A DNA stretch of 64,000 nucleotides from Chiloscyllium plagiosum (lineage: Eukaryota), in NCBI RefSeq assembly GCF_004010195.1, contig NC_057719.1, positions 82,531,417 to 82,595,416 of the forward strand. Reading direction: 5' to 3'. Every line of letters begins with the position of its first letter. Within the stretch, counting starts at the first letter, position 1. A model generated the notes under the pieces. The model searched no databases. It saw only the letters and a program-made list of their open reading frames with translations, and was not told the origin of the DNA. Below are positions 3,100 through 61,081 of this stretch, piece after piece. A program made the translations under genes and the position numbers.

Positions 3100-5620
3100 T
3101 CATACCCACTTTATTCAAAAATTTTCATTGATATACATAAATACAGCAATTGTAAATATTATAAACCTATTGTAGCCAACATATGTACATAGTGTGGAAT
3201 ATTTACAAAAACATAGGAAGCATTGTGAGCTCCACACCCCCCACCACAATCCCAAGCATTGCTTTCATAGTCTACATTGAAATGATTAATCTCTTAGATG
3301 GATGGTGGTTTTTAGATGCGTCTAATCTAAGGAGCCTTTCTGGTGTAGTCTACCACACTTCTAAAAGCTCCTACTGTTCAGCAGATGTTTTCCTCTGTGA
3401 TTGGCTGCTATTATCCTTTGAATCATCTGTTTCGTCTCTAAATTTGGCCAACACTGTCTTGGAGACATATGACTTGGTTGACACTGCAGGTTCCATCTGG
3501 CCCATGTCTCCTCTAGACCAGCTCATCCCTGGTCTGCACCTTATACAGCGGCAGTCCTGCTTGAACTACCCCTGTTGCTGGAATCATTTCTCCCTAGACA
3601 TATTATTTCTGACCAAGATTGTCTCTTTTTCTTTTGTGGAATATCCCTTCTGGCCACCTGTCCCTCTTGATTACGCTGTACCATCTGTCTGGTCTCTTTT
3701 GGCCATAGCAAGTCACACACAGTTCGTGGCTGATATTTGAATATGAAAGATATCAGCAAACACTTGGTCGAATGTGACATTATGATATATGCTGAGGAAA
3801 CTTGTTGATTCACTGACCTATCAAACACTCCCTTTGGGAGACTTTCAAAAGTTGCTTCAAGGTCTGTACAAGTCTCTCCATCTGGTCATTTATCGCTGGG
3901 TGATGTAGAGCGGATCTTGTCTGTCTGACTCCATGATATTTCAGGTACCCTCCAAACTCTTTTGCGAGAAACTGTGGACCTTTGTCACTCATAATTTGTT
4001 CAGGGATCCTAAGCATGGCAAATATTTCATCCAGTCGGTCTACCGTTACTTCTGCTGATACCGGCTTCATGACCACCACCTCGGGCCACTTGGAGTGGTC
4101 ATCCACATTTGTCCCTCTGCTGCTCCTGTGAAATCACAATTTTCTGCTGCCTTGATAGTTGAGAACATTCCCTTGCGTGAGGGGATGATAACAGCAGCAC
4201 CTTCCTTACTAATGAGCAGAATTCACATTCTCCTCAATCTGGGAGTCCACGCTCAGCCACCAAAAATAGCTTCTTGCTATTTCTTCTGCACCACACCAGG
4301 GTGCCCTTGGTGCACTTGTTCCAGCATGTTTTCTTCTTTAATGGGGAAGGAATGACAACACTCGCGTCGTTCTGGGGAAGGATTCCAAACACGTACCTTG
4401 TCTTCCTGTGATAACTACATAATGTTCAGTCCCAGTTGGACACCTCTGTATCCCTCAGTAGTGGCAGCCCTGACGAGTCATTTGCATCGCTGTGCTTTTC
4501 TCTGTATTGGTGTCTGATTTCATATGTGTAGACTCACAGAGCCAGTACCCATCTCTTTGCTGCTACCATTGACCATATCCTTATATGCAAGCCAAAAATG
4601 AAGGTTAGCGGCCTGTAGCGATCAACAGCACGAAGTGCCTGACGTAAAGTTGTTAGGAGAACTACTTAACACTGAAACGATGCCCAGTTTTTATTTTTAA
4701 CTTTTTGTCACCTGTTCTCGACTTGGGCATAGTTCTCCTCCCACTTTATTAATAACCTTGATGAGAATCCAATGGGCTTCTCCTCCATTTGGTGAGATGT
4801 GTGACAGTACAGTGCCAGCTCCATAAGGCAAGATGTCACATGCTAACAGTAATGGTAACCTTGGGTTGAAGTGAGTTAACACTTTTGACCTTTTTAAGGC
4901 TTGCTTCACCTCATGGTAAACCTCCTTGCATGGCAAATTCCATTTTCACAGCTGTCCTTTCCTGAGCAACTTATGCAAGCATTTTAGTATAGTTGTCAGA
5001 TGCAAGTCAAGCTTAGTAATAATTTACTAAGTCCCAAGAATGATCTCAGTTGAGGCACATTCTCTGATCTAGGGGCCTTCATGCTAACCTCCATCTTGGG
5101 CAACTTATGTAGTCCTTCAGTGTTGCTTTGATGCCCAAGTACTCAATTAAATCCCTAAAAGAGATCACTTATTTCTCTCTTTTTACTTGTAGACCATACT
5201 TCTGCAACTTTTTAAGGGTTTCATTGAGGTTTCTCAAATGCTCCTATGGACTCCAGACAACCCACTTAAAATTTGGCCTATGGCATTCTGGAGTAGAGGT
5301 AGTGCTGACTTGACAACGAAATAGAGACACCTTTAGCAGAAAAGTCCCTGAGAGTCTGTATTGTTAGCAACAACTGAGACCTCTTCATGGACCTGCAACA
5401 GATCCATTTTAGAGAATTTCTTTCCTCCCACCAGTCCGCGGAATAGATCTTTCATGAATGAGAGTGGATGTTGTTCCATGGCCTTAAAAGTCACCACAAA
5501 TCCTCGCTGCATCATCTGCTTTTAAAACTGGAATACTTGGAGTAGCTCATTCGCTAGTGGTTACTGGTTCCAATGTTTCCAGATTCATCGGCTGTTTCAG
5601 TTCTGCCTCAACTTCAGATA
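3100..5620 (-). mobile_element. Degenerate Ty3/Gypsy pol remnant (RT-RNase H-integrase), 5' truncated
   Basis: ORF fragments in Gypsy order: RT (GGKKFSKMDL, 5333-5515), RNase H (VLTHFNPRLPLLLACDILPYGAGTVLSH, 4697-4936), integrase core (DDHSKWPEV...IPEQIMSDKGPQF...HPAINDQMERLVQTLK, 3810-4106). Many stops and frameshifts. Confidence 0.9.
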
Positions 5621-10202: not shown

Positions 10203-10401
10203 AAATAAAAGTAAAGTACTGCAGATGCTGAAGATCTGAAATAAAAACAAAGTGCTGGAGAAACTCAGGTGTGACAACATCTGTGGAACAAGAAAAAGTT
10301 CACCTTTTAAGTCTAGTATGACTTCTAAAGAGTTCTTGAATTCAATGTTAACTCTTTCTCCACAGATGCTGCCAGATCTGAATTTCTCCCAACTTTTGCT
10401 G
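10203..10401. repeat. Foldback of two inverted Penelope-like termini
   Basis: Arms ggagaaactcag...catctgtgga and tccacagatgctgccagatctgaatttctcc; flanked by the direct repeat aatttattc (10194-10202, 10402-10410). Confidence 0.7.
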
Positions 10402-10829
10402 AATTTATTCGAGAATGCTTAAAAGTTCTGTGAACCTAATACTTTACATAATGTGGCAACACTCAAAATGTTTAGTGTTGCCGATGGATTGAGTGCCTAT
10501 GTCCAAAACGTAGTGTGTTCCCAAAGTAAACTATTCAAGGAAAATTTAAAAAGTATAATTTAGTTATAGGAACACACATCAAAACCATTCAGTGGTCAGT
10601 CTCAACTTCTGCTTTGCCAATTACTAATAATTCTAACTTCTTGATGAGAAAGCATAAAGGAAAGCCTGTTAACTTTTAGTCTCTACTTCAGGGGAAACTT
10701 TCCCTGATATCAAACTCTAGGTTTTTTTTGTCATTTAATTACATGATATAGAATTTGCTGGATAGGCCAGCATTTCTGGTGCCGATCACCCTTGTGAAGT
10801 TGATGGTGAGTTTCTTCCTTGAACTGCAG

Positions 10830-15817: not shown

Positions 15818-16034
15818 TCGCACAAAAATAGAAATTGCTGGAGAAACTCAACAGGTTCTGGCAGAATCTGTGGAAAGAAAACAATTAATGTTTTGAGTCC
15901 AGTAACCGTTCTTCAGAAGTTGGTCACTGGACTCTAAACTGTTTTCTCTGCACAGATGCTGCCAGATCTGTTGAGTTTCTCCAGCAGTTTCTTTTTTGTG
16001 TTTCAGATCTGCAGCATCCTCAGTTCTTTGCAAT
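15818..16034. mobile_element. 217-bp foldback element of two inverted Penelope-like termini with 16-bp TSD
   Basis: About 90-bp inverted arms (gctggagaaactcaacag.../...ctgttgagtttctccagc); direct repeat gaaacaaagatttgat at 15802-15817 and 16035-16050. Confidence 0.85.
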
Positions 16035-19359: not shown

Positions 19360-21530
19360 ATCATTACAAAGCCTGATAAAAGAAATGAAACTGGACAGAC
19401 CACCTGGCAGCCAAAGCACTGGAAACTGAATTGACACTCTCTCTTACTTGCACCACACACTCTAAATTCACACTAAGCAATAGCCTGACAGTCCTTTCAC
19501 AGAATCATTCTTCACAGGCAATGCTCTGAATACCATTATCACTATCTCTGGGTATGCCTTTTTACATCAGTAGGATGGACCCACCACAGGTGGTGCACAG
19601 TGATATACAATTGGGAGAGAGTTGGTATGGGAGCCCTCATTGTTGTCTGTAGACCCCATGAAGTCTCCTGGTATCAGACTAAACATGGGGAAGGAAACTT
19701 TCAACTAATGACCATTTACACTCAGTCTAAACTGATTTAGTTCTCCTTCATGTTGAACACTGCTTGGAGGATGGACCTAGAGTGGTAATAGCATAGAATG
19801 TACTCTGGCTGTGGGATTTCATTGTCTGCTGTCAAAATTGGCTTGGTAACACCATTATTGATCTGAGCTGGCTGAATCCTTAAGGCTATACCTGCGAGAT
19901 TAAGTCTGTGGCATATAGTGATGGAACTAGTGAAGGGAGGGGGAAAATCTGTTGACCTCCTTCTCTACTTGTAGTACATGCATCTCTCCTTGTCTGTATC
20001 AGCAGGAATGGACACCACACAGTCCTTGTGGAGACAATGTCTCATCTTGCCATTAAGAACATCCTTCATAAAGAATTGTAGTATTACTGCTTCGTTAAAC
20101 TAGACAGCGTGAGCAGCGCTACCAACTCAGAGTTGGACATCCATGAGGCATTATAGGCCATCAGCAGCAAAAGAATGTTATTCAATCACAATTTGCCACC
20201 TCACTCCACCATTACCATCAAGCCAGGGGATCAACCCTAGTTTAATGAATAGTGGAGGAGGACATGCAAGGAGCAGCTCCAGTCATAGTGAAAAATGAGA
20301 TGTCACCCTAATGAAGCTATAGCACGGGACTACTTGCATGTTAAGCAACTTAAATTGAATAAATAACAAGCATAAGCTAAACAGAGCGAGCTATAAGTAT
20401 TCCCACAACCAGCAGCTTGTATCTAAGCTCTGCATGTAGCCATTTGTGGCATTAGGATACTGTACTGCTAGCAAAGCGGAAGTTGATGGGAGTCAGGGGC
20501 GCGGGTGGAGATCAGGGGAGTTTGAATCTGTTTCATACTAGCATAAATTTATAAGTGTTGTGGTTATGGCAGTTGATCATCTTAGCCATAGGACATCATT
20601 GCTGGTGTTAGTCAGAGTCGTGTCCTTGGCCCAACCATCTCCATGTAAAGCCAGAGATGATATTGTGCAGTTATCAGCAAACATTGAGATGTCACAAATG
20701 GTGTTGAACCGATACTGAAATAGTTCCTGTCAAAAGCAGCAAGATACAGGCAACATACAGGCTTGGGCTGATGTGTGGCAACAATGTGTTACTTGCGACT
20801 TGAATGCCAGGCAATGACCATCTCCCAACAAGAAAGAATCCAGCCTTCATGCCCTGGCATTACTTAATCAATAATGAATTCCAGCGTTATCATCATCCTG
20901 GGGTTCTCATTGACCAGAAACTGAAATTGCTCGGCCAGATAAATAATGTGGTAATAACGGCAGTTCAGGGACTGGATATTCTGCGATGAGTAACTTACTT
21001 CCTGACTCCTCAAATCCTGTCTCTCACCTACAAGGCACAAGTCAGGAGTATATTGGAATTCTATCCCCTAGCCTGAATGTTACTTGCCTCCAACAACACC
21101 TAAGGGTTTTGACACTTAGAACAAAGCTATCTGCTTGATTGGGCATCTAAAATTTTCAATACACTTTCTATCATTATTGCACATGGATAGTTTGTACCTT
21201 CAAAGAGGTGCACTGCAACAACTCTCTGAAGCTCAGTACACAAGCCTGAAATCTCTCATCTATAAGGAGAAAATTGGATATGCAGGAGCACCACCACTTA
21301 CGAATTCCATCCAAGTCACTCACCATTCTGACTTGGAACTATAACTCCGCTCCTTCAATGTCCCTGGGTCAAAATCCTGAAAATTCCTCCTTTGCAACAC
21401 CATGAGTTCTGCCTACATCATATGGAATGCAATACTTCAATGAGGTAACTTGCCATCACCTTCTCAAAAGCAGTGAGAGATGAGCAATAAATGTTGGCAT
21501 AGCCTGCAATACCCATTTCCCATGATTTGT
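19360..21530 (+). mobile_element. Second LINE family, internally deleted copy
   Basis: Starts gaaatgaaactggacagaccacctggc like 48655 and 49686; contains tgggatttcattgtc (GDFNV-like); ends with caccttctcaa...gatgagcaataaatgttggc. Confidence 0.75.
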
Positions 21531-21856
21531 AAATTTGAACTAGTTATATCATGTAGGTCTTTGATAATGACGTGGAACAGATTGACCTCTTAAATTTGAT
21601 TTATTAAAATTTTTAATAAAATTCAGGATTCTTGTGTTATTGTGGTAGTTATAGCTTGATTTGTTAATTCCTTGAAGAACTGGCTTGAATTTGAACTTGC
21701 AAAAATTTTTATTTTGTTGTGTAATGTAGTTACTTTGAATTTCAGTTTTGTCCTCCTTTCGTCATATCAAATACAGGTTGGGGATATTCTATTGTGAGAG
21801 TGGTTAGAATTTTTCCTACTGTTTATAGTCTAACTTTTTGAAAACCTCATTTGCAG

Positions 21857-22069: not shown

Positions 22070-22635
22070 GTAAATAGTACTTAAGGAACATAAAAATTAT
22101 GAGCAGTTCCATTTTTTTTCCATAAGGTCTTGGCTGATCTATTTGTGTTTGAAATGTAACATTCTTATCAACCGGATAACCTTTGATTCCCTCACACAAG
22201 AACTTAGCCACCCGTGTCTTCAAAATATTAAATGACCCCACCTCTACTGCCTTTTTAGACTGTGTTCTAAAGTCATACTACACTCAGAAAACCATTTTTC
22301 TCATTATTCAAAATGGAAGATCTCTTAACTAGAGGACACAATTTTAAAATTGTGCCCTCTAGTTCTGAACTTGACAGTAAGAGTAAACATCCTTTCCATG
22401 TCCATCATGTCAATTTAGGATCCTATGTACTTCAGTCATGTTACCCCTCACACTTCTGGAGTGGAATTGAGCCTAGCCTGTCCAATCTCCTCTTAGAGGA
22501 TCCAAGTCATTCTAGGTACAGAACCAGTAAACCACCTTAGACCTACTTCTGACATATCATCTCCTTCCTTCAAGTAAGGAGATGAAAGCTGCACATAATA
22601 TTTCTGATGTGGTTTCATTAATGCCTTTTATAACA
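22070..22635 (-). mobile_element. Old CR1 3' fragment
   Basis: Reverse complement resembles a CR1 tail and C-terminus; similar to 55310-55920. Confidence 0.6.
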
Positions 22636-33744: not shown

Positions 33745-36700
33745 AAGACATAGGAGCAGACATTAGACCATTCAGCCCATTGAGTCTGCTCCGACACTCA
33801 ATCATGGCTGATAAATTTCTCAACCCCATTTTTCACTTTCTCCCCATAACCCTTGATAATCAAGAACCTAGCTATCTGCGCCTTAAATATACTGAATGAC
33901 CTGGCCTCTACAGCCTTCTGTGGTAATGAATTCCATAGATTCACCACTCTGGCTGAAGAAGTTTCTCCTTATGTCCGTTCTAAAACTTTCCTCTAAGGCT
34001 GTGCTCTCCGGTCTTAGTCTCTCCTACCAATGGAAACAACTGTCCATGCTATTCAGTATTCTGTAAGTTTCAATTAGATTCCCCCTCATCCTTCTAATCT
34101 CCATTGAGTATAGACCCAGAGTTCTCAAACTTTCCTCATATGTTGAGCTTTTCTTTACTGGGACCATTTTTGTGAACCTTCTGAGCATGCTCCTGAACCA
34201 GTATATCCTTCCTGAGATATGGGGCCAAAAACTGTGCTAAATATTCTAAATGTGATTTGACCAGAGTCTTACAGAGCCTCAGAAGTACATTCCTGCTTTC
34301 ATATTCACATCCTCTCAAAATAAATGCTATCATTGCATTTACCTCCTAACTACTGACTCACCCTCCAACTTTATCTCGAGAGAATCCTGGACTAGAACTC
34401 CCAAGTCTCTTTGCACTTCAGACATCTCAATTTTCTCCCCATTTCGAAAACAGTCCATTCCTGTATTCTTCCTACCAAAGTGCGTGACTTCACACTTTCT
34501 CATGTACTCTATCTGCCACTTCTTGCCCGCTCTCCTAATGTGTCAAACTTTCTGCAGCCTCCCCGCCACCTCAGTATCTATCTTTGTATTGTCTGCAAAC
34601 CTAGCCAGAATGCCCTCCGTTCCTTCATCTAGATCATTAATGTATAAAATGAAAAGTTGTGGTCCCAATGCTCAGCGTTGCGGAACACGACTTGTCATCA
34701 GCTGCCGTCCTGAGAAGGAGAAAGTGAGGACTGCAGATGCTGGAGATCAGAGCTTAAAAATGTGTTGCTGGAAAAGCGCAGCAGGTCAGGCAGCATCAAA
34801 GGAGCAGGAGAATTGACGTTTCGGGCATAAGCCCTTCTTCAGAAACGACCCTTTTATCCCCACACTCTGCTTTCTGCCAGACAGCCAAACTTCTATCCAT
34901 GCTAGCACCTTGCCTTGAACACCATGTGTCTTTATCTTACTCAGTAATCTCCTGTGCAGAATCTTGTCAGAAGCCTTCTTGAAGTCCAGGTAGATAACAT
35001 CCATTGGCTGTCCTTGGTCTAACCTGCTCATTACTTTCTCAAAGAATTCTAGCAGGTTTGTCAGGCATGACTTCCCCTTGATGAAACCATACTGACTTTG
35101 CCCTATTTTACTATACAATTCTAAGTATTCAGAAATTTTATCCTTCGCAATGGATTCCAGGACCTTGCCCATAACTGACGTGAGGCTAACTGGTCAGTAA
35201 TTTTTCATCTTTTGCCGTACTCCCTTTTTAAATGGAGATCTCACGTGAGTGATTTTCCAGCCATCTGGGACTCTCTGATTCTAGCGATTCCTAAACGATC
35301 ACCACTAATGCCTCCACTAGCTCTTCAGTTATCTCCCTTAGAACTCTAGGGTGTAGCCCATCCGATCCAGGTGATTTACCAACCTTCAAGCCATTCAGTT
35401 TTTCTTGCACTTTCTCCTTGGTGTTGTTCACCATACTCTGCTCTGCCCCCCATACTCTCTTGAATTTGTGGCATATTACTCATGTCTTCCATCATGAAGA
35501 TTGACACAGTAATTATTCAATTCCTCAGCCATTTCCTTGTTCCCCACTACTATCTCTCCAGCGTCATTTTCCAGCACCCCAATGTCCACTTTTGCCCTTT
35601 ATATGTCTAAAGAAACTCTTACAGTCTTCCTTTATATTATTGACTAGCTTAATCTTCTCCCTCCTTATTTCTCTTTTTTTTTTGATGCCCTCTGTTGGTC
35701 TTTGTAAGCTTCCCAATCCTCTGGTTTCCCACCTGCCCTTCAGCACATTACATGTTTTAATTTTACTTTTATGCGATCCCTACTTCCCTAGGTAGCCATG
35801 GTTGCCTAGTCATCCTCCCTGTACCATGCTGCTTTATCTTGGGATAAATCTCAGCTATGTCTCCTGAATTATTTCCAGAAATTCCTACCATTGCTGTTCC
35901 ACTCTCTTTCCTGCTCAGCTCAGAGTCCATTCTACCTAGCTCCTCCCTCATACCTCTAGTTGCCTTTATTCAGCTGTAATATTGTTGCTTCAGATTCTGT
36001 CTTTTCCTTTTCATATTGCAGAGTAGATTCAATCATATTATGATCACTGTTTCCTTAAGGGTTCCTTTACCTTAAGCTCCCTTATTAACTCTGCCTCTTT
36101 GCACAACACTAAATCTAGTATTGCCTGTACTGTAATGTGCTCCACCACAAGCTGCTTCGAAAAGCTATCTCGTATACATTCCACAAATTCCTTTTCTTGC
36201 GAACCACTACCAACCTGGCTTTCTCAGTCCACCTGCCTATTGAAATCCCCCATGATCCCCCCTTGCCTTTCCTACACATCTTTTCTGTCTTCTGGTGTAT
36301 CTTGCACCCCAGTTCCTGACTACTGTTTGGAGGCCTGTACATAACTCCAACTGTGCAGTTCCTCAATTCTACCTGCATTGATTCTATACCATCTGCCCCT
36401 ACTTCGTTTCTTAGTATTGATTTGATTTAATTTCTTTAATTCCTTACTAATAAGGCAACCCCACTCCCTCTGCCCATCTGTCTATCTTTTCGATAAAATG
36501 TATATTCTTGGATTTTCAGCTCCCAATCCGGGTCGCCTTGCAGCCACGTCTCCGTGATGCCCACCATGTCATACCTGCCAATTTCGATCTGTGCCACAAG
36601 CTCATTTACCTTATTCCTTATCCTGTGTGCATTCAGGTATAACACCTTCAGTCTTGTATTAACTGTCCCTCTTCTCATTGTCATTCGTCTGTCCATTGTG

Positions 36701-37200
36701 CTTGAAGTTTGAGAGTATTTGCAAATACTCTGTCCTATTTGTGTCTATGCTGGAGAATTTAATAACCTCTCCAGAGTTCCTACTCTTACTCCCAATAAAT
36801 GACCCCCACCATTTAGTTTAAACCCCTGCCCACAGCCCTAGGTATGCAATTCGCTATGACTCTGGTCCCAGCGCGATTCAGCTGAAGACCATCCCATCGG
36901 AACAGGTCCGTTTTTCCCTTGTACTGGTGCCAATGTCCCATGAATTCAAGCCCATTTCTCCCACACCAAACTTTGAGCCATGCATTTACCTGCTTAATCT
37001 TATTGACCCTGTGCAAATTAACTCATGGCTCAGGTAGTAACCAGAGGTTATTATTTATTTGGTTCTGGTTTTAATTTAGCTCCTAGCTGTTCCTATTCCC
37101 TTAGCAATACCTTTGCCCTAGTTTTACCTATGTTGTTGGTACCTGCATGGACCATGACCACTGGATCCTTACTCTCCCACTCAAAGTTCCTCTGCAGCCC
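33745..37200 (-). mobile_element. CR1 LINE, degenerate (part of ORF1 + ORF2)
   Basis: Minus ORFs: WCGRNG...WDGLQLN (ORF1), LYLNAHRIRNKV...GITETWL (APE), GVMYRPPNS, YLDFKKASDK (RT). Confidence 0.92.
34717..34843 (-). mobile_element. Penelope-like terminus nested in CR1, intact hammerhead core at 34815-34842
   Basis: Minus strand ctgaagaagggcttatgcccgaaacgtc...gatgctgcctgacctgctgcgcttttccagcaacaca, nearly identical to 14794-14875. Confidence 0.85.
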
Positions 37201-40200
37201 AGAAGTTAGGCCTTTTGGCCCATTGAGTCTGCTCCACCATTCAATCATGGATGATAGGTTTGTCAATCCCATTTTCCCACTTTCTCCCCATAACCTTTGA
37301 TTCCCTTGGCAATCAAGAACTTATCTATCTTTGTTTTAAATATAATCAATGACCTGGCCTCCACTGCCTTGCATTGAATTTCACAGACTCGCCACTCTCT
37401 GGTTAAAGAAGTTTCTCCTTATCTCTGTTCTAAAAGATCTTCCCTTTTACTCTAAGGCTATGCCATCAGGTCCTTATCTCTCCTCCCAGTGGAAACATCT
37501 TCCCAGTGTCCACTCTCCAGATTGTTCAATATTCTCTAAGTTTAATTCAGATTCCCACCCCCCACATCCTTAAACTCCATCGAGTAAGGTACCAGAGTCT
37601 GCAAATATTCCTCATATGTTAAGCCTTTTGTTCCTGGGTTCATTTTCATGAAACTCCTATGGACCTGCTCCAGGGCCAGTACATCCTTTGAGGTATTGGG
37701 TCCAAAATTGCTCACAGTACTCTAAATGTGGTTTGTCCAGAGCTTTATAAAGCCTCAGAAGTACATCCCTGCTTTTATATTGTAGTCTTCTCGAGATGAA
37801 TGACAACATTGTATTTGACTTCCTAACTACCAACTCTGCTTGAAAGTTTACCAAGAGAAACCTGTACTAGGACTCCCAATTCCATTTGCTCTTCAGACTT
37901 CTGAAATTTATCACCAGTTGGAAAATAGTCCATGCCCCTCTCCTTCCAACCAAAGTAGATGGCCTCACACTTTCCCACATTGTACTCCATCTGCCAGTTC
38001 TTTGCTCACTCTCTTAACCTGTTTAAGTCTCTCTGCAGCCTCCCTCTCTCCTCAATACTACCTACCCTTCCACCTTTTTATTATCTGCGAGCTTAGCCAA
38101 AATCTTTCACTTCCTTCATCCAGATCATTAATGTTTAAAGTGAAAGTGGTCCCAACACTGACCCTTGTGGAACATCACTGGTTTCATCCTGAGTAGGACC
38201 CTTTTATCCCCACTCTCTGTCTTCTGCCAATCTTCTATCCATGATAGTTGCTGGCCTGTAATACCATAGACCCTTATCTTACTCAACAGCTTCCTATGTG
38301 ACACCTTATCAAATGCCTTCTGGAAGCCCATATAGATAACATGGCTCTCAATGTCTAACCTGCTTGTTATCTCCTCAAAGAATCTTAACAGATTTGTCAG
38401 GCATGACCTCCCCTTGATGAAACCATGCTGACTTTGCCCTATTTTACCATGCATTTCCAAGTATTCAGATATTTCATCCTTTACAACGGACTCCAAAATC
38501 TTACCAGCATCTGAGGTCAGGCTAATTGGCCTATACTTTCCTGTCTTTTTCCCTACTCCCACCTTAAAGGGTGGGTTACATTAGCGATTTTCCAATCTTC
38601 TAGGGCCCTCCCTAACTCCAGTGATTCCCGAAAGATCACTACCAAAGCCTCCTCTATCTCTTCAGTTATGTCCTTCTGAACTCTGGTGTGTAGCCCTTCT
38701 AGTCCAGATGACTTACCCACTTCCAAAACTTACAGCTTTTCTAGCACTTTCTCCTTGGTGATGGCCACCATATTCATCTCTGCTCTTCCACACCCCCACC
38801 ACCACTCACCCCCCACACTCTGTTGACATTTTAGGATATTACTCGTGTCTTCCACAGTGAAGACTGACATAAAGTACTTATTCAGTTCCTCAGCCATCAA
38901 TTTCCAGGGACCCAATGTCCACTCTTGCCCCCTCTTTTTGCTCTTGATATAGCGAAAAAAATTCTTGCAATCTCTTTTAATATTATTGGCTCGCTTTCCC
39001 TCCTATTTAGTCATCTCCCTCTGTATTTCTTTCTTCGTTGTCCTCTGATCTTTGAAGGCTTCCCACTGCCCTTTTCCACATCATATGCTTTCTCTTTTGC
39101 TTTTATGCTGTCCCTGACTTCCCAGGTCAGCCATAGTTGTTTCATCCTCGCTTTCATATGCTCCTTTCCTCGGGATGAGTTTTTGTTTTGTTTCTCAGAA
39201 ACTCCTGCTATTGTTGTTCCACTGTCTTTCCTGCTAGGCTCCTCTCCCAGTCAATTCTACCCAGCTCCTCTGTCATGCCTCTGTAGTTGCTTTTATTCAA
39301 CTGTAATCCTGTTACACCTGAATCCACCTTCTCCCTCTTAAATTGCTGAGTAAATTCTATCATATTATGGTCACTGTCTCCTAAGGGTTGCTTGGCCTTA
39401 AGCTCCCTTATCAAATCTGCCTCGTTGCACACTAAATCCAGAATTGCCTGTTCTGTAGTGGGCTGCACCACAAGCTGCTCCAAAAAGCCATCTGAGACAT
39501 TCCACAAATTCCTTTTCTTGTGATCCACTGATTTTCCCAGTTCACCTGCATGTTGAAATCCCCCATGATCATTGTAACCTTACCTTTGTTACTCGCCCTT
39601 TGTATCTCTTGGTGTACCTTGTGTTTCCAATCCTGACTACTGCTTAGAGGCCTGTAGGTAACTCCCATTGGTTTTTTTTTCCACCAATTGGGTTCCTCAA
39701 CACTACTCACGCAGATTCTACATCATCTGACCCTACTTAGTTTATTGCTACTGATTTAATTTCATTTCTTACTAACAAGGTAACCCCACCCCTCCGCCTG
39801 GCCTTTTTCAGTAGGATAAGTATATCCTTGGATATTTAGCTCCCACTCCTGGTCCCCTTTCAGCCACATCTCTGCCCACTGCATCGTACCTGCCAATTTC
39901 AATCTATGCCACAAGCTCATTTATCTTATTTTGTTTACTGCGCAAATTCGGATACAGCACCTTCAGTCCTGTGTTGATCATCCCTCTTCTCATTGTAATT
40001 TGTTTATCCAGTGTGCTTGCAGTTTGGTTCTTAACCCTTTCCAAACACTGTCCTAATTTGTATGCTGGAGACTTTAATGACCTCTCCTGAGTTCTCCTTT
40101 CTTTTCATTTTTCATATTTCATATTTTTCCATCCCCTTGGCTGTAGCTGCTTGGATTTTTACCCTTTCCTTCCCCCCAACTTCCTAGTTTAAAGTCTTGT

Positions 40201-40450
40201 TGACCACCCACTTACCTTTCTCGCTGGTCCCAGCTCTGTTCAGGTGGACACCATCCCAACTGTACAGATCTTTCTTGTTTCAGTACTCGTGCCAGTGACT
40301 CATGAAAAGGAACCCCTCTTTCCGACTCAACTCTTTTAGCAATATGTTTACTTCCCTTATTCTCACATCCTTATGCCAGTTTGCACATGGTTTGGTCAGT
40401 AATCCAGAGATTATAACCTTTGACATGTTCTTTAATTTTTAGTTCTTGAT

Positions 40451-40731
40451 AATCCCTAAACAGGTCCTCTTACCTAATATTGTCTATGTTGTTTGTATCG
40501 ACAAGGATCACGACTAGATCCTCTCACTTCCTCTCCAATATCCATTCAAGCCAGTCCTGGACACTGGCACCGGGCAGGCAACATAATATTCTGGATCAGA
40601 ATCCCTAAACAGGTCCTCTTACCTAATATTGTCTATGTTGTTTGTATCGACAAGGATCACGACTAGATCCTCTCACTTCCTCTCCAATATCCTTTCAAGC
40701 CAGTCCTGGACAACATAATATTCTGGATCAG
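40451..40731 (+). repeat. Tandem duplication (149 bp + 132 bp)
   Basis: aatccctaaacagg...attctggatcag occurs at 40451-40599 and 40600-40731; the second copy lacks 17 nt. Confidence 0.9.
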
Positions 40732-48420: not shown

Positions 48421-49510
48421 GGAAGGTAATGGCCGTGTCACCAAATTAGTGAACCGGAGACCCAGGCTAATGTTCTGAGGTCCCACCACAACAGATAATG
48501 GGAATTTGAAGAGACTTAATAAATGGCAATCATGAAACATTGTGGATCTAGTTCACCCTCCATATAATTCCAGACTTCCTGCAAAGTGGTTGACTTCGAA
48601 CTGCACTCTGATATAGCCTGGTTAGCCTCAGTTGTATTAAATGCTGCAAAGTCTAAAGAATGAAATGAAATTGGATGGACCATCCAGTATCGACCTATGC
48701 ATTGGACAGAGCTGGGTTTGCCATTGTCCTACTAACTAACATCTGAGGTCTTGTGCCAAAATTTACAGAACTTTCCCACTGATCAGTCCATCATTAGCCT
48801 GACTTAGTGATGTTCACTGCATGATAACCTTTACACAAACTTCCAGATACCACTGTCCCCAATATGACTTGCCCTACCAGACCTGAAAAAGGTACAGAGG
48901 AGTATCGACTATCCGAAGGACACGGACGGGGAGTATTTCGATCGGTTAATTGAAAGCTGGATAACATAGTTTAGTCGAGCATCGGGACCTTGTGATCCTG
49001 TCGGATAATCCAGTATTTGGATAATTGAATGCCAGATAATCGCGTTTTCTGTATATGGTTGGAAGGGAATTTTCTGGGAATCTCAAGATTGACTCTGGGC
49101 ACAGCAAAATCTCATGGCATTAAGTCAGACTTTGGCAAGGAAACCTCCTGTTGACAACCCCCAACACCAAGTGGCTGATGGATCAGGAGTCCCCCTTGTT
49201 GGACACCAGTTGGAAGAAGCACAGAGATTGGCAATGTCCTATCCACTACCAAGGCACAGCTGTTAGTCTGGATCTACAGCAGTTGGCATAGGAACCAGCA
49301 AGAGGAGAAAAATCTACTTGACCTCTGCTTCACTAATCTACCTATCATAGATGCACTTGTCCATTGCAGTACTGGTAGGAGTGACAATAGCATAGTCCTT
49401 TTTATGGAGATATAATCCAATCTTCACATTTTAAGGGTTACCTCATCTTCTGAGAGATTTAGAACACATTTAACAATTCTCAACTGGGCATCCATAATAT
49501 GCAGTGGGCG
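48421..49510 (+). mobile_element. Second LINE family, 5' copy with SINE-like head then endonuclease region
   Basis: Head gagacccaggctaatgttctg...tcccaccac...gaatttgaa, then gtggttgact...ctctga...ctcagttgta, then gaaatgaaa.tgga and TNI*GLVPK. Confidence 0.7.
48895..49051. mobile_element. 157-bp pogo/Tigger-like MITE
   Basis: TA|cagaggagtatcgactatcc ... agataatcgcgttttctg|TA: imperfect TIRs starting CAG, TA duplication, internal ggataat repeats, CpG-rich relative to host. Confidence 0.75.
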
Positions 49511-50643
49511 ACTAACAGTAGGCGAATTCACTAATATTCTTTAGGAAAAGAAGTATGCCGTCCTCACTTCGCCTGGCTGACCTGCGACTCCAGATCCATA
49601 ACACTGCGGTTAATTGTCTACTGCCCTCTGAAATGGCTTCACAAGCCACTCAGCTGTATCAGTTGCTACAAAGTGTTGTCAAAGAAATGAAAGCCAACAG
49701 ATCACCTAGTATTGACCTAGGCACTGGAAACTGCAATAAAAAAACAATTTGTTGACCCTGCAAAGTCATCCTCATTTAGATCTGGAGGTTAGTACCAAAA
49801 TTGAGAGGTCAGAATAGTCGAACAACAGCCTAATATTGTCTGTAAGATATGATTCCATAAGTATGACTATGTCCTAGGCATGACCATCCCTGGATATGTC
49901 CTGTCCCACCGACAGGGCAGAGCAGGTAAAGATGGCAGAACAATGGTTTACAATTGGGAGGGAGTTGCCCTGGGAGTATTGAACATTGACTTCACATCTA
50001 GTGGCTTCAGGTTAAACATGGACAAGGAAACTTCCTGATTACCTCGTACTGTCCTCCCTTGGCTGATGGATCAGTACTCCATGTTGAACAGCACTTGGAG
50101 GAAGCCCTAAGGATGGGAGATTTCAATGTCCACTATCAAGAGTAGTTTGGCAATAGCCCTACTGATTTGAGATGGTTGGGTCCTAAAGCACATAGCTGAT
50201 ACACTAGGTTTGTGGCAGGTAGTGAGAGAACCAAAAAGAGGGACTTGACCTCATCCTTAGCAATCTGGTTGCAAATGCATCTTCCACGTCAGTAACGGTA
50301 AGAGTGGCCACTGTTTAGTCCTTGTGGAGATGAAGTCCTACTTTCACATTGAAAATACCCTCCATCATGTTGTGTGACATGATCATTCTAAATAGGACAG
50401 ACTCTGAACAGATCTACTAACTCAGGACTGGGCATCCATGGGTGCTGTGGGTCATCAACAGCAGCAGAATCATATTCCCAACAAAATCTGCAAATTCATT
50501 GCCATGCATATTCCCCACTCAATCCTGATTCATTGAAAAGTGCAGGAGTATGTCTGGAGCAGCACCATGCAAATCTAAAAATGAGTAATCAACAGGGTGC
50601 AGCGACCAAACAGGACTATTTGTGTGCCAACTTAGCTCTGTTA

Positions 50644-50960
50644 AGATTAGATCAGATTCCCTGCAGTGTGGAAACAGGCCCTTCAGACCAACCAGTCCAC
50701 ACCGACCCTCTGAAGAGTAACCCACCCAGACCCATTTCCCTCTGACTAATGCACCTAACACTATGGGCAATTTAGCATGGCCAATTCACTCGACCTGCAT
50801 ATCTTTGGATTGTGGGAGGAAACCAGAGCACCTGGAGGAAACCCACGCAGACACTGGGAGAATGTGCAAACTCCACACACAGTCACCTGAGGCTGGAGTT
50901 GAACCTGGGACCCTGGCGGTGTGAGGCAGCAGTGCTAACCACTGAACCACTGTGCTGCCC
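50644..50960 (-). mobile_element. tRNA-derived SINE (HE1-like), full length
   Basis: Reverse complement gggcagcacagtggttcagtggttagcactgctgcctcacaccgccagggtcccaggttcaactcc (A and B boxes), (aatct)n-like tail. Confidence 0.9.
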
Positions 50961-51333
50961 AGAACTTCCACAACTGAGGGATTAGATCGGAGTTCTTCAG
51001 TCCTGCCACATACAGTTGTGATGGATGTGGATAACTGACTGGAGGAGAGGGCTCCACAGTATCCCTGGAAATCAGTGTAAAAGATAGGACTAAAGCATTT
51101 GCAGCCATCTTCAGCCAGAAGTGCCAACTGGATTATCCATTTCTTCTTCCTCCTCTGGTAGTCCCCAGTACTACCAGTCTTCAGCTAATTCAATTCACTT
51201 CACATAATATCAAGAAATGGTAGGAGACACTGGGTACCGCAAAGGCTATGGGCCTTGACAGCATTCTGGAAATAGTACTGAAGATTTGTGTTCCAGAACT
51301 TGACACTCCTCTAGCCACGCTCGTTCAATACAG

Positions 51334-51403
51334 ATAATTGCTCAGTTGGGAGAGTTTTAGACTGTAGATCTAAAGGTCTCAGGTTCAAACCTGGATTTCA
51401 GCA
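51334..51403 (+). pseudogene. tRNA-Phe-derived pseudogene (anticodon reads GTA)
   Basis: gctcagttgggagag.ttagactg[t]agatctaaaggtc...ggttc...tttcagca matches vertebrate tRNA-Phe(GAA); the acceptor-stem 5' strand is lost and D and T stems carry mismatches. Confidence 0.85.
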
Positions 51404-51428
51404 AAAAAGTGTTTCCTGACTGCGGGGT

Positions 51429-51717
51429 AGGAGCACAGTGGCTCAATGGTTAGCAGTGCTGTCTCACAGTGCCAGGGACCTGAGTTTGATTCCAGCCTCT
51501 GGTAACTGTGTGGAGTTTGCACATTCTCCCTATGTCTGCGTGGATTTTCTCCGGGTGCTCAGGTTTCCTCCTATAATCCAAAGATGTGCAGGTTTGGTGC
51601 ATTAGTCAAGGGTAAATGTAGAGTAATAAGATAGGGCAATGAGCCTGAGTGGGTTACTCTTTGGAGGGTTGGTGTGGATTTGTTGGGCCAAATAGCCTGT
51701 ATCCACACTGTAGAGAT
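51429..51717 (+). mobile_element. tRNA-derived SINE (HE1-like)
   Basis: gcacagtggctcaatggttagcagtgctg head, gtgtggagtttgcacattctcc core, gcctgtatccacactgta tail. Confidence 0.88.
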
Positions 51718-52619
51718 ACAACACTGGCATGTTGTCTATCTGACAATGTGAAACGTTGCCCAGATATGTCCTCTACACAAAAATCGGGACAAATCCTGAC
51801 TTACCAGTTCACTCTTGATCATCAGGTATCACCAATAATGCTACTCAACAGCATCTGCTCAACAATAAATTGCCCAATGATACTCAGTTTGGTTATGCCA
51901 GACCATTCAACCCCTGACCTCATTACAGCCTTGGTTCAAACGTGAACAAAAGAGCTGAATTTCAGAGGCGCAATGCGAGTGACAGTCCTTGACATCAAAG
52001 TTGTGTTTGATCAAGTGTGGTATCAAGGAGCCCTTGCAAAACTGGAATCAGGGGGCAACTCTCTGCTGGTTGGAGTCAACATAAGAGCATCTAACCATTG
52101 CCATTTGTCAAAACAGTGGCATTACCAGCACTGAAACTCCAAATATCAATACACTGGAGGTTACCCTTGACTTGAAACTGAACTGGACTTGCTACAGAAA
52201 CACAGTGGCTACAAGAGTAGGTTAGAGGCTCGGAATCTTGCAGCAAGTAACTCACCTGACTCCCCAATGCCTATCCACCATTTACAAGACACAAGCCAGG
52301 TGCATGATAGAATACTCCCCTCTTGGCTAGATGGGTGCAGCTCCAAAAATATCCAAGAAGCTTAACAACAACCAGGACAAATCAGCCCATCCACATTGGC
52401 ACTGCATTCACAAGCATCCACCCCATTTACCACTGATGCTCTATTGCTGCAGTGTGTACTCTTTCCAAGATGTACTGCAGAAATTCACCAAAAATCGTTA
52501 GACAGCATCTTCCAAATCAAATACCATTTCTACATGTGGGAACGCTACCACCTGCAGGTTCCCCTCCAAGCCACCCACCATTCTGACTTGGAAATAGATC
52601 ACTGTCACTGGGTTATGTC

Positions 52620-53630
52620 ATGGCCTAGCATTTCCTCCACCCCACCATTGCCGTCAAGACAGGGAACAATCTGGGCTCAATGAAGAGTGCAGGAGGACAA
52701 GCCAGAACAGAGAATTCCTACCTAAAATGAGATATTTATCTGGGGCAGCTACAGCACAGGATTACTTCCATGCTACTTCTGTTTGGCATGCCATTGAGCT
52801 AAGCAATTCATTACTAAAAGGATTGGTACAAAGGTCTTGGTTCTGCTTAAGGGCAATCAGCGATAGGCAATAAATGCTGCCCAGGTCTGATGGATGAATA
52901 AACAAAGGTACAGTCTCTTCCAGCCATAAATAATGGTGACGAACAAAAAGCTCACTGGAGCTGGAGGGGATAAGTTAAATTTGCATCAAAACTGCCAGGT
53001 TGTAATTATCTCCGAGAGAACCTAACCATCTGTCCCTGATGTTCAGTGGCATTACCATTGTTAAATTCCCTACTAGCAAAGAGTTTGTCTTCACTAGAAA
53101 CTGAACTCTGTGAACCAAATCAATGTTGTGCTATAAGAGCAAGTCAAGGACTAGGAATTCTGTGGCAAGTCGCTGGCCTCCTCTTTCCCCAGTGGTGGTT
53201 CACCATTTACAAGGCACAAGTTAGGAGCCCCGTGGAGTACTCCAACCCACCTGACTGAATGCAGCTCCAACAACACTCAGGAAGCTTGACACCATCCAGA
53301 TAAAGAAGTCTACTTGATTAGCACCACATTCAGCACATTAACCATTATTCACCCCTTCCCATGCATTTGACTTATACTATTAGAAGGGTTGGGGCAGCAG
53401 GTATATGAGAACGCCATTGTGTGTAAGATCCCCTTCAGGCTGCTCACTGCCCTGACTTGGAATTTTACCGCTGTTCATTCACATCAGTGTCAAAATGCTG
53501 GAACTCCTTTTCATACTAACATTGAGTGTAACTGTGCCCTAAGACTGCAGTGGTTTAAGAAGGCAACACACCCCTGGCACAGTTTTCAAGAATAATTACA
53601 AATGACCCCCACAACCCATGAATAAATTTG
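52620..53630 (+). mobile_element. Further fragments of the second LINE family including 3' tails
   Basis: aagggcaatcagcgataggcaataaatgctg (~52850) and actgcagtggtttaagaaggca (~53545) tails; TIYKAQVRS motif. Confidence 0.65.
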
Positions 53631-55964: not shown

Positions 55965-58932
55965 GGTTTGAGATGTTATTGGATAGGCTAACATTCTTTT
56001 GCCTGTGATTAACTGCCCTGGCGAAGGTAGTAGTGAGCTATTGTCTTAAACCTCTGCCAGTTTTGGAGTGTAGGTACACCCACAGAGCTGATAAGAAAGG
56101 AGATCCAGGAGTTTGAACCAGCAACAGTGAAAGAATGACAATATGGTTCTAGGTCATGATGCACAGTTTGGAGGGAAATTTGCAGATAGTGGTGTTCCCA
56201 TGCATTTACTGTCCTTGTCCTCCTAGGTAGTGGAGGTTTTTAAAAATCATTTTGTGGGATGTGGGTGTCACTGGCTGGATGATCATTTATTACCCATCCC
56301 CACTTGCCCTTGAGAAGTTGGTGGTGAGCTAGCTTCCCTGCTGTGGGTGGGCCCACAATGCCATTAGCAGGGGGGAGTTCCAGCAACAGTGAAGGAACAT
56401 TGATCTATAGGATGGTGAATGACTTAGAGGGGAACTTGAAGGGGTTGTGTTCCCATATATCTGCTGCGCTTGTCCTTCTAGATGAAAGTGGTAATCGGTT
56501 TGGAAGGTGCTCTCTGAGGGTCTTTGGTGAATTTCTGCAGTGCGTCTTGTAGATAGCAACAGTGTGTACTGAGCGTTGAAGATGGAGGGAGTGGATGCAT
56601 GTGAATGTGCCAGTCAAACGGGCTGCTTTGTCTTTGATGGTGTCAAGCTTCTTGAGTGTTGTTGGTTACAAGTTTGGATAATCCTGTTGAGGAATCTTTG
56701 CTAATTAACTGCAATGCATCTTTTAAATTGTTCATATTCCTCTTATGTATCATTGGTAGAGAGAGTGCATATTGGTGGATGCACTGCCAGGCAAATGGAG
56801 AGGCATTCCTGGTTTGTGCAATATAATGGCTTGAGGAAGCAAGAGGTGAGTTACTGTAGAATTTCAAGCTTCTGAGTGACTGACTGGTGTTTTAACCACA
56901 GGACTTATTTGGCATGTCTGGTTCATTTTCTGGTTAGTGGCACCACAGAATGAAGTAGAGGTTTCAGGGATGGTGATCCGACTGAGTATCGAGAGGTGAT
57001 GGTTAAATTCTCACATTGGAAATGTATATTGCCTGACACTTGTATGATACAAATGGTGCTTATGACTTTCAGCTCAAGTCTGGATGGTATTCTGGTCTTG
57101 CTGCATGTGGGCATGGATGCTACAGTATCTGAGGAGGTGTCAATGGTGCTGAACATTGTGTAATTATGAGTGAACACCAGCACTCCTAACATTATGATGG
57201 AGGGAAGGTTATTGAGGAAGCAGCTGACGTGGTTTGGCCTTGGACATCACCCTAAGAAACCCTTGGAGTGATGTCCTGGAGCTGAAAGATTGACCTCCAC
57301 AACCTCCAGCATTTCCTTTGTGACAGGTATTACTCCTTTAATAATTGGAGAGCTTTCGCCTGATTCTCACTGATTTTGCTCAAGTTTCTGGATGCCACAC
57401 TTGGTCAAATGCAGCCTTGATGTTAAGATCAGTCAGTCACCTCTGGAGTTCAGCTCTGATGTCCATGTTTGGGCAAAGATTGTAGTGAGATCAGGAACTG
57501 TGAGACCTTGACAGAACTCAAACTGAGTGAACAGGTTATTGCTTTGTAATGGTTTCTTGATAGCCCTGTTGACAACAAGTTTTCTCATTTTGTTGATGGT
57601 GGGGAATATCTTGTTAAGGCAATAATTGACACGGGTGGAGTTGTCCTGCCTTCCTGCACCAGGGCACTTTTCCACATTGTCACATAAAGGCCAAGGTTGT
57701 AACTCTCTTGGAACAGGTTGGCTCAGAGCATGGTAGTTTTGGTGTACAAATCTTCAGCACTGTTTCCAGGGTGCACACTCTTTGCAATATACTGTGCCTT
57801 CAGCCATTTGACATTGTATGGAGTGAAACAAATTGGTTGACAATTAGATTGGCATCTGTGATGCAGGGGATTTCTGGAAGAGGCTGAGATTAATGACCTG
57901 CTATCTACTCCTGGCTGAAGACTTGCAAATGCTTACCTTTATCTTTTATGTTGATATGTTGGGCTCCTCCATTGTTAAAAATTGGGATGTGGCTCCTCCA
58001 TTGTTAAAAATTGGGATATTCGTGGAGCCATCTCCTCAAGTGAGTTGTCTAATTATCCACCACTGTTCACGACTAGATGTTGCAGGATTGCAGAGCTTGA
58101 ATCTGATCCATTGGTTGTGAAATCACATAGTCCTGTCTAAAGTCTGCTGCTTCCGCAGTTTGGTGCGCGCATAGTCCTGTTGTAGCTTCATCAAGTTTGG
58201 GTATACCAAAAAAATGGAGTACATTGTTGCTCTTAGTATCCCCTCCTACGTTCTTCTTTGAACCAGGGTTGATTTCCTAGCTTGAAAATCATAGTGAAGT
58301 AGGAGATATGCTGGGTCATAAGAGCGCAGATTGTGGTTGAGTACAGTTCTGCTGTTGATGGCCCATAATGTCTCTTGGATGCGTAGTTTTGATTTGCTAG
58401 ATCAGCTTGAAATTGATTTCATTTAGCAAGATGGTTCTAACACGGGTGGTTCTAACTGTGAAGGTCAACCTGGTCTCCGCCAGGATTGTGCAAAGGTCAA
58501 TCTTAACAGCACTGCCATGAATGGACACGACTGCACACTTGGATTTGTGGGACGAAGTCGAGTAGTTGTTTTCCAATGGTTCATTCACCAATTGCTGAAG
58601 ACCCAGTGTATCAGCTATGTCCTTTAGGCTGTGGTCAGCTTACTAAACATTGACTATACTTGAGCTACTCATGGTGATTGACATTAAAGGTCCCCACCCA
58701 GAGAATACAGTATTCTGTGCCCTTATCCTCCGAGAGCACACTATTCAACATGCTGGAGAACTGATGATTGCAAAATCACTGCAGAGGACCATCACCAGCT
58801 GGAGATTTACTTGTCCATGTTTGACTCCTGCCATGAGACATCATGGTATCCAGAGTTAATATTGTGGACTGCTAGACCCACTGATTTCTGACTGAATACC
58901 ATTCCACTCTGACACCTGATAAGTCTGTCCTG
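55965..58932 (-). mobile_element. Second LINE family, minus-strand copies
   Basis: Reverse-complement tails at ~55970 and ~56250; QFEFCQGLTVPDLTTIFAQTWTSELNSRG (RT, 57433-57675) matches the plus copy at 51885-51970. Confidence 0.8.
57962..58019 (+). repeat. 29-bp tandem duplication
   Basis: ggctcctccattgttaaaaattgggat(g/a)t twice. Confidence 0.9.
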
Positions 58933-59771
58933 ATAACAACATAAGAAATAGAAGCAGGAGAAGGGAATTTGGCCCCTCCGGCCTGCTATGGGTTGAATTG
59001 CCCCAGGCCTCAACTTCTGTTTTCATGCCAGCTCTTCAAAGCTCTTTCAAAAATTTATAGATTGTAAATGGTTGAGGCCGAGCACTTATCCATAATATCC
59101 CATTAGTTACACTTTGTCATCCTACAAAAGCCCAATTTTTCCTGACTGTTCCATATTGGTTAGTACACCATCCATGTTAAATAGCACCCCACAAGTAGAT
59201 GCTTTTTATTTGGAACCTTTTCAAATGCCATTTGGAAATCCAAATACAATGACCTACTGGTTCTCTTTATCCACTTTACTTGTAATACCCCAAAGAACTC
59301 CCAGGAAACCTATCAAACGTGACTGGCCTTTTGCAAAACATCCCTGGTTGATAATATTATTATTATTCTTATTTGTCATCATTTGAGGCAATTGGTTACT
59401 GTTGTAATGCTTTAGACTTTGGTGGTTTGATTGCAATGAAGTGATAATACTGGGCAGGTAATTATTCTTGCAATTGTTCACATATTCCTTCTGTTATTAT
59501 TCACTAAGATACTGAATAATGGCCAAAAACTTCACTGGAATGTGAATAGGAAGGTGACTTATTGTGGTTGATGTTGCATACTTCACAGTAAATATTTAAA
59601 GGACAATGGTAGTTAGTAAAATATGTTCCTTTCCTATTCTGTGACTGACAACGTTGAAAGGTTGGAATTACTAGAAAAGGTTTTGTTAGTGTAATTAAAG
59701 TACGCAAAAATGCGGCATGCACAGCATCAGTAAATTCAATGATGTGTTCATTCTTTTCTATCTTATTGCAG

Positions 59772-61081
59772 GTGATAAAAATTCCTCCTTCCTGATGCCA
59801 AGAATAGTGAATGTGACCTCTCTGGCAACTGGAGAATCTCCATCATTGAATGTGCAAGGGATGAATGATTCTTTCGCAGAAGTGGATCCTCAAGCTCTTG
59901 ACTTCAGCATGAAAGGGAGGAAACAAGGAGAACAAGTTTCCAGAGACAGTAAAAGAACATCTGACCTAAGTAACAGCTCAAACATTACTGGAGAGTTCAC
60001 TGTACTTGGTGAAAGTGAGGTCATGCCATTTCTTATTGTATCACCAGAGGCTTCAAAGTCCGAACATCAACAGCAAGCACAGCAGATTGCAGCTTCTCAC
60101 GTAGTGGGTTCTGACAAAATCAATGGATCACCAAAGGCATTGGATCTGTCTTGTTTCCCTGATAAAGCTTCAGTGTCTTCCACAGAAAAGGCCTGGACTA
60201 GAGAGGAAACATCAACTGGGTCAGCACCAACAACTGAAATAATACTTGAAGACAAATTGGAGTTTCAGCTGATGAGCAGTCGGGTGCAGACATGCAACAC
60301 TGGCAAAACTATTGGACTGAGTGACAGGGATGCAGAACTGTCATCACTGTTAAAAGCCAATGGCACAACATCTAGTGAGATGGTGGATACTGATGGCTAT
60401 GAGCCATTCACTTCACTTTTAAATGAGCTTGCATATTTAAACCAGCAGTTCTCTGATGATGAGGAAAATCCAAATGCGTCTTCAATATCTGATCACCAGG
60501 CATTGGGCTTTATTGAGAATGGAAATCGAGGAGACGATATTGATGAATTTTCATTGATCCATGGACCAATAAGATTGGTGGACATTGGTGCTAATGAAGT
60601 CACTGAACTGAAACAGACGTCGGAGAGGGAAAGTGGTGGCTCAAGTAGCCCCCTGGTATTGCAGTTGGAGGGAGAGGAATTGAATGTTGAGCAGTTGCTT
60701 AGCAGCGAGATACCAGTGGGTTCCCAAAATGAGTTGGACGATGGCACACTGGATTTCGAAAGCGATCATGCTTGTGGGGTAAACAGTTCAGTAAATGTTT
60801 CCCCTCCTCCACTTGTACATATGAAGGCAGCCTCACCTTCATCAAACACAGAGGTTCCAAGCAGTTTAGACTTGCTTTGGAGACCAATGCCTAAATTGGC
60901 ACCCCTTGGCTTAATTAGGGTACCTGGAAAGGTTGAATCAGTAACACTGACAGATCATTCTTCAGATAATAACAGGCCTATGCCCGCACTAGCACGGATC
61001 TCATCTCCGCAACACATTAGCACAGAGAGTCCGTGCAGTGTTTCGGGAGAACACTTCAACAATTCCTCTGTGAAAGAGTGA
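59772..61081 (+). CDS. MGA: MGA terminal coding exon to stop codon
   Basis: ttgcag/GT acceptor, phase 1; FLMPRIVNVTSLA, TSLLNELAYLNQQ, SPPPLVHMK and WRPMPKLAPLGL are characteristic MGA C-terminal motifs; TGA at 61079-61081. Confidence 0.96.

Follow-up and report, generated by a model that had tools for sequence, protein, structure and literature searches.

Anatomy of the locus

The window (the whole 64-kb stretch of DNA that was analyzed) consisted of repeat-dense DNA of elasmobranch type, and whale-shark gene models were among its close protein relatives. Self-comparison of the window showed approximately 10 decayed fragments of one LINE family, 57–73% alike. The copies named here (A to D) and the later insertions in them were arranged as follows.

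48421..48500, + strand: decayed tRNA-like head of copy A; by eye, colinear with nt 1 to ~100 of the published shark Zenon consensuses
48501..48664, + strand: remaining 5′ leader of copy A, with internal deletions; includes the shared block (48568-48664)
48665..49521, + strand: ATG and decayed APE region of copy A, with a MITE-like insert inside
48895..49051, no strand given: high-copy insert in copy A, with TA flanks and CAG...CTG ends
49522..49686, + strand: 5′-truncated leader of copy B, with the conserved block and without the tRNA head
49687..52617, + strand: ATG, decayed APE, linker and RT frame of copy B; 3′ end missing, interrupted by later inserts
50655..50960, − strand: SINE inserted in copy B
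51329..51404, + strand: tRNA-Tyr-like insert in copy B, with a short A-run after it
51432..51716, + strand: second SINE in copy B, of the same kind as 50655..50960
52618..52905, + strand: probable right part of copy A; the linker resumes about where copy A stops
19365..21533, + strand: copy C, from ~20 nt ahead of its ATG (19385); shortened by internal deletion, 3′ tail present
56239..58960, − strand: copy D, 5′-truncated within the APE and extending to the 3′ tail

The initial annotation had described A and B as two adjacent copies. Both share the block, but only copy A has a head, copy B being 5′-truncated inside the leader, and mapping on copies C and D suggested that copy B is nested inside copy A rather than merely next to it. 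The DNA behind copy B resumes the linker about where copy A stopped and then, with copies C and D as rulers and by the tail alignment, skips ~1.7 kb of the element to reach the family 3′ tail at 52843-52905. Thus, copy B was most likely inserted into copy A, and later deletions would have taken the tail of B and the RT of A. Copy D was the longest RT-bearing copy in the window. Decayed copies ended in short A-rich stretches after AATAAA-like motifs.

The APE region of copy A matched protein P0003 (E 7e-11), and the Pfam families APE and RVT_1 were found on relatives. No APE or RT family of Pfam was detected on 14 decayed peptides of the window, and five long window frames were also without a Pfam match.

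The insert at 48895-49051 has internal inverted motifs and occurs at very high copy in three species, with a summed contig depth of up to about 14,000 at 48932-49010; judged from its ends and flanks, it may be a Tc1/pogo-type MITE-like element. The SINE at 50655..50960, which we take to be V-SINE/HE1-like, has several copies elsewhere in the window (72–82% alike). Directly before the second SINE in copy B lies the tRNA-Tyr(GTA)-like insert (Rfam RF00005, 35 bits; also found by ARAGORN), probably a tRNA retrocopy. Elsewhere in the window, three segments were self-complementary (15821-16000, 10235-10414, and 22529-22615), the first two of which are alike and may represent a palindromic MITE family. 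A 460-codon stop-free frame at 59699-61081 (+ strand), without a Pfam match, is probably a large exon of a host gene.

Assignment to elasmobranch Zenon

Whether the element was already catalogued, a point that the initial annotation had raised, was settled by the elasmobranch Zenon consensuses of Stuart et al. 2026 (PMC13343379). As judged by sequence comparison, the window copies are decayed elasmobranch Zenon, a known LINE whose placement in the CR1 group is taken from that paper, in which Zenon elements recovered from five elasmobranchs are described. All our comparisons with these consensuses were made by eye on the first 400 nt of each row of Suppl. Table 2 (PMC13343379), and the species behind the row prefixes are our own reading of the abbreviations. 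Over this span, the leader and ORF start of the window copies were colinear with the CarCar, RhiTyp, ScyCan, SquAca, and HypSab Zenon consensuses, and the copy B leader was approximately three quarters identical to published Zenon leaders. An exact 17-nt motif of the window was found in three Zenon consensus rows of the supplement.

The five main elasmobranch consensuses are 3.24–3.31 kb long, with the ATG near nt 345 (PMC13343379). Only about 345 nt thus precede the ATG, which agrees with the earlier statement that no ORF1 fits upstream; the same paper describes all Zenons as lacking ORF1 and having a poly-A tail, the tails being general to Zenons whether the head is present or not. The missing ORF1 is therefore an ordinary, published Zenon trait. 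As in Zenon, the family has a single APE-RT ORF, with APE and RT matches in its relatives: full-length protein relatives were single APE-RT proteins of 940–1,000 residues, several of them encoded on 3.1–4.0 kb contigs. Intact ORFs are almost gone from elasmobranch Zenons (0 of 2313, 1 of 1419, and 3 of 612; PMC13343379, Suppl. Table 3).

The shared block and the leader–ATG junction

Copies A and B had been said to share a non-coding block soon followed by gaaATGAAA, and both observations were reproduced. Positions 48600-48706 of copy A aligned with 49620-49728 of copy B (70% identity over 109 nt, E 4e-6); when the non-coding parts alone were used, none of 1000 shuffles reached the alignment score. 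An 18-nt motif of the block matched the window twice, once in each copy (0.04 matches expected). The gaaATGAAA sequence was found at 48665 (copy A) and 49687 (copy B), in the latter 28 nt past the block. The APE motifs reported downstream were present, but in decayed form (NI*GLVPKF in copy A; IWRLVPKL and QQPNIV in copy B), NIWGLVPKL being the form found in whale-shark protein P0032. GDFNVH also exists, near 50120, but outside the interval to which it had been assigned. A third copy was rightly reported to start at the same ATG region: copy C matched from 19365 (ATG at 19385, E 6e-4), and its DNA further upstream did not match the block significantly (622 of 1000 shuffles did as well).

One contig of organism B (48988-49845) and one of organism C (49018-50080) each crossed both the A-to-B junction and the leader–ATG junction of copy B; the A/B locus is therefore not an assembly error. 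Other orthologous contigs of these two species covered the head of copy A. In two of 157 proteins tested, whale-shark P0032 and P0008, a translation of the block precedes the same APE (E 5e-17 and 7e-10, respectively); the remaining matches were at chance level. Junctions that varied between copies would have pointed to independent insertions, but the order of head, leader, and ATG was fixed, and the leader–ATG junction is family-wide. A chance juxtaposition or assembly artefact, with SINEs independently inserted beside LINE fragments, would suit a window dense in nested repeats, the whole of which is spanned by no single contig. Nevertheless, the same junction recurs in copies A and B, in the consensuses of PMC13343379, in whale-shark gene models, and in orthologous contigs from two further species, and we give this explanation almost no credence.

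The leader block was nearly invariant, by eye, between the sharks and a ray within the first 400 nt of their consensuses. The copy B leader folded no better than its shuffles, and several upstream ATGs lie within the Zenon leader. A 77-codon stop-free frame of copy B (49522-49752, + strand) crosses the leader block into the ORF start, and the whale-shark model P0008 likewise begins at the ATG of the block. Because the published Zenon consensuses have a stop two codons past this ATG, the frame through the copy B leader is probably due to chance.

A motif scan of the window found the block in copies A and B only, with no free copy that could represent a short SINE derivative. One loose end behind 49638, formed by seven near-identical RNA reads, looks like the block joined to the tail, but we do not count so weak a signal. 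The block had a summed depth of 3,200–3,800, which did not exceed that over the ORF (up to 15,000), depth not being equivalent to copy number.

The tRNA-type head

Within the first 400 nt of the consensus rows, all seven elasmobranch Zenons showed by eye an A-box-type motif (TRGCNTAGTGG) at their very start, and five of the seven also had a complete B box (GGTTCRAATCC or GAGTTCAAATCC), with the T-stem strand after it. The exceptions were HypSab, with a 1-nt gap inside the B box, and SquAca-3, where a deletion follows the box directly. The A box of CarCar begins at nt 9 and its B box at nt 73; between them, two similar stem-loops can be drawn by eye, the first of which is anticodon-like. The hagfish or coelacanth rows were without a tRNA-type head over the same span (zero of three).

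The additional hairpin arm differed between CarCar and SquAca by two both-sided pair changes (C-G to T-A and A-T to G-C, by eye). We take this arm to resemble that of the tRNAs with a long variable arm. The extra hairpin (consensus nt about 28–70; 48438-48482 in the window) also resembles the anticodon-like stem-loop as a tandem duplicate would, SquAca_Zenon-1 being the clearest case; most of the extra hairpin is missing from the ray consensus.

The boxes were thus read by eye from the published consensuses; in the window they are broken in copy A and absent from copy B. In copy A, deletions have removed the A box in its 3′ half and the B box for the most part, so that the window alone cannot show the promoter; the best matches had at least two (A box) and at least four (B box) mismatches, in agreement with the partial deletion noted in the initial annotation. 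The extra hairpin arm was retained (48459-48482). The head of copy A formed a hairpin of −8.5 kcal/mol, which was not significant (15 of 200 shuffles equaled it), and neither a tRNA nor a ribozyme was detected at this head by Rfam and ARAGORN. When it was compared with the tRNA-Tyr of the window, 44 of 1000 shuffles equaled the score and the match fell on the wrong part of the head; comparison with three SINE heads gave no convincing likeness.

The tRNA-like fold could instead be a signal for RNA processing or translation, in an element co-transcribed with host sequence whose 5′ end is freed by a nuclease such as RNase P. The pair-preserving changes seen by eye in the hairpin arm suggest that RNA structure is under selection, six LINE clades are known to free their 5′ end by cleavage (PMC5786205), and the self-cleaving ribozymes of R2 and RTE achieve a comparable 5′ release. 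However, the A box is kept in all rows, whereas HypSab is without most of the extra arm and the anticodon-like stem of RhiTyp is mismatched, and a processing signal leaves the TTTT depletion over the body (below) unexplained. We consider this explanation unlikely.

Relation to SacSINE1 and the Deu domain

The initial annotation had read the head and the block as the tRNA head and Deu domain of SacSINE1, with the shark Deu-SINE possibly an internal-deletion derivative of the LINE. Two Deu core motifs taken from Fig S4 of PMC7245038 had no match in the 64-kb window at up to three mismatches, and a third had 11 matches (15 expected by chance). The block could not be aligned by eye with the Deu alignment published in that figure. 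The UCON3 and Meta domains were also considered for the block and rejected, with no resemblance by eye.

In SacSINE1, the Deu domain is placed at about nt 124–258 and is accompanied by an L2-2_CM-type tail (PMC5499810), for which a CR1-4_DR-like donor has alternatively been given (PMC3747384). Its head and tail were set apart from those of Zenon by these published descriptions rather than by the SacSINE1 sequence. It is true that SacSINE1 and Zenon are both tRNA-headed and both present in sharks (PMC5499810), and that the block has a short GCCGTC stretch in common with the start of Deu. Yet the Deu core motifs are missing from the window, and the SacSINE1 tail is tied to L2-2_CM or CR1-4_DR-like LINEs, whereas the window family is Zenon. 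Derivation of the shark Deu-SINE from this LINE is therefore very improbable, and Zenon says nothing on the origin of the Deu domain. What stands of the original proposal of an autonomous element with a Pol III-type head is one family with a tRNA-like head, a fixed leader–ATG junction, and a single APE-RT frame; its Deu identity does not.

Depletion of TTTT on the coding strand

In vertebrates, a run of four or more T terminates transcription by Pol III. In 14 segments of the family in the window (11,493 nt, with limits chosen by us from the self-comparison), we counted 16 sense-strand runs of four or more T (T4+), whereas 33–36 were expected, and none of 200 simulations was as low under either of two null models. 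Runs of four or more A (A4+) on the same segments were close to expectation (65 observed, 66–71 expected). The control was a second CR1-type LINE of the window, present as two head-to-tail copies of ~3.3 kb (33757-40552, − strand) that are 68–73% alike; its nine segments had 51 T4+ runs (31–42 expected). Extension from three to four T was observed in 16 of 119 cases, significantly less often than for A (65 of 221, P = 0.0008) or for T in the control (45 of 163, P = 0.005; seven control segments, two doubtful ones having been dropped).

None of the 12 testable T4+ runs of Zenon recurred in another copy, in contrast to 23 of 56 A4+ runs and 19 of 43 T4+ runs of the control (P about 0.005), although mismatch among the control copies is somewhat lower (25%) than among the Zenon copies (31%). 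The T4+ runs of the window copies thus arose after insertion. In simulations, a TTTT-free ancestor that had decayed by 10–15% gave 12–18 T4+ runs. Among the consensus rows, TTTT was found by eye in the first 400 nt of zero of seven elasmobranch Zenons and of all three hagfish or coelacanth Zenons. The depletion and the lack of sharing between window copies suggest an ancestor without a T4+ terminator within the unit.

Back-translation of related proteins followed by decay gave 25–30 T4+ runs, with 0–4 of 100 replicates as low as observed. With P0021, a relative low in Phe, 22 runs were obtained before decay (11 of 100 replicates as low) and 25–26 after it (2–4 of 100). Because this low-Phe null overlaps the observed count, protein composition explains part of the depletion. 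Runs of five or more T were not significantly depleted (6 observed, 8–9 expected), and those of five or more A (A5+) were depleted too (12 observed, 19–22 expected). All copies being one lineage, the T4+ depletion is one evolutionary observation.

A probable Pol III-transcribed, protein-coding LINE

The A/B-box head together with the TTTT-depleted coding strand makes transcription by Pol III from end to end likely. We estimate a probability of approximately 0.6 that shark Zenon is a Pol III-transcribed, protein-coding LINE, a reading that depends on sequence and on a promoter read by eye from published consensuses. An ancestral Zenon would have acquired a head derived from a tRNA or a SINE before the split of sharks and rays. 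TFIIIC would bind the A and B boxes of this head, and loss of T runs would let Pol III reach the 3′ end of the 3.3-kb element. Pol III RNA has no m7G cap. The uncapped Zenon RNA would be translated by cap-independent entry via the conserved leader block, and the Zenon protein would copy its own RNA by target-primed reverse transcription, the internal promoter being regenerated in each full-length copy. The 3′ tail in the window contains AATAAA motifs (tail alignment), and Pol III transcripts of SINEs with AATAAA are reported to be polyadenylated in some cases (PMC8466645). The wider proposal, that Zenon is an autonomous LINE whose uncapped 3.3-kb Pol III transcript encodes a 950-residue APE-RT, with the T-run terminators purged from it, and that it forms a SINE–LINE hybrid class that predates the shark–ray split and can shed SINEs by internal deletion, seems to us slightly more probable than its opposite.

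The main difficulties for transcription by Pol III are length and expression. At 3.3 kb, Zenon is far beyond the known Pol III retroelements, given as 100–1,263 bp in PMC10886601. In one RNA run, 66 reads mapped to the locus, none at more than 95% identity and none on the head, and these reads stem from other copies. The upstream ATGs of the leader, the unexceptional folding of the copy B leader, and the poly-A tails of Zenons that have no such head also weigh against Pol III.

Both the length and the cap problem would be solved if the head were a captured tRNA or SINE fragment and Pol II, acting from the leader block or through host read-through, produced the coding RNA. The boxes would then be kept for another function, e.g., TFIIIC-mediated opening of chromatin, and the poverty in T would reflect codon use or avoidance of splice or poly-A signals. 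Non-LTR elements are described as Pol II-transcribed (PMC10886601), A5+ runs are depleted as well, and the low-Phe null partly overlaps the observation. Transcription by Pol II is, however, opposed by a depletion that is sharpest at the step from three to four T and restricted to one strand, with no T4+ run common to copies, whereas the control LINE retains shared T4+ runs; moreover, the position of the A box is the one that fits initiation by Pol III at nt 1. We regard a Pol II-made Zenon RNA as a doubtful but serious alternative.

By the accepted division, Pol II transcribes LINEs, and SINEs are short non-coding products of Pol III. If Zenon is transcribed by Pol III, a coding LINE whose Pol III-type head is conserved and whose body is free of terminators would break this split, would represent a natural example of cap-independent translation of a long mRNA made by Pol III, and would offer a direct route from LINE to SINE. 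The idea is testable now, the consensuses being published (PMC13343379).

Comparison with distant relatives and known systems

Twenty loci on GTDB genome contigs (L008–L027, mostly from metagenome-assembled genomes) carry CR1-group APE-RTs that are 22–40% identical; two of them lie on one 716-kb contig labelled Endozoicomonas. These loci apparently represent eukaryotic host contamination. ARAGORN found no tRNA in 19 of the distant CR1-group loci, and Rfam gave no match in 11. Eighteen were scanned for boxes, and an A and B box pair was present in none of the four with a full upstream region near the N-terminus. In the same 18 loci, the ratio of observed to expected T4+ runs lay between 0 and 3.9, in most cases at about 1 or higher. 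Five motif matches on viral contigs were attributed to chance; further motif scans over genome and viral contigs were negative, as was an alignment-based viral scan, and loci L006 and L007 were rejected as spurious.

The closest known system is elasmobranch Zenon itself (PMC13343379), with which the window family shares the head, the leader, the ORF start, the length class, and the absence of ORF1. The main text and preprint of that paper make no mention of tRNA, Pol III, polymerase III, or promoter. A literature search, mostly of titles and the beginnings of abstracts, retrieved no description of a tRNA-headed coding LINE and nothing joining Zenon, tRNA, and elasmobranchs. Thus, the family is known, whereas its tRNA-type head and TTTT depletion are not noted in PMC13343379 and, in the literature searched, are apparently undescribed.

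Like Zenon, tRNA-derived SINEs, including SacSINE1 and LmeSINE1, combine a tRNA-type head, a conserved non-coding body, and a 3′ end of LINE type (descriptions in PMC5499810); the A and B boxes of such heads are seen, by eye, in the published Zenon consensuses. Zenon differs from the Deu-SINEs among them in having no Deu motifs, a frame of ~950 codons for APE-RT, and, going by the published descriptions, a Zenon tail instead of L2-2_CM. Nor is it short and non-coding, as SINE2 elements are: its leader passes straight into the APE-RT frame. The bipartite, LINE-derived bodies of RTE and Vingi SINEs described by Kojima (2018, PMC5786205) also join a LINE 5′ leader to a small-RNA head, but there the head is on a non-coding deletion derivative, whereas in Zenon it is on the coding element. 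The TRIMp3 elements Cassandra, Helenus, and Ajax, as described by Kojima (2024, PMC10886601), likewise place a small-RNA Pol III promoter on a retroelement that is not a SINE; in contrast to Zenon, they are non-coding LTR elements of 311–1,263 bp.
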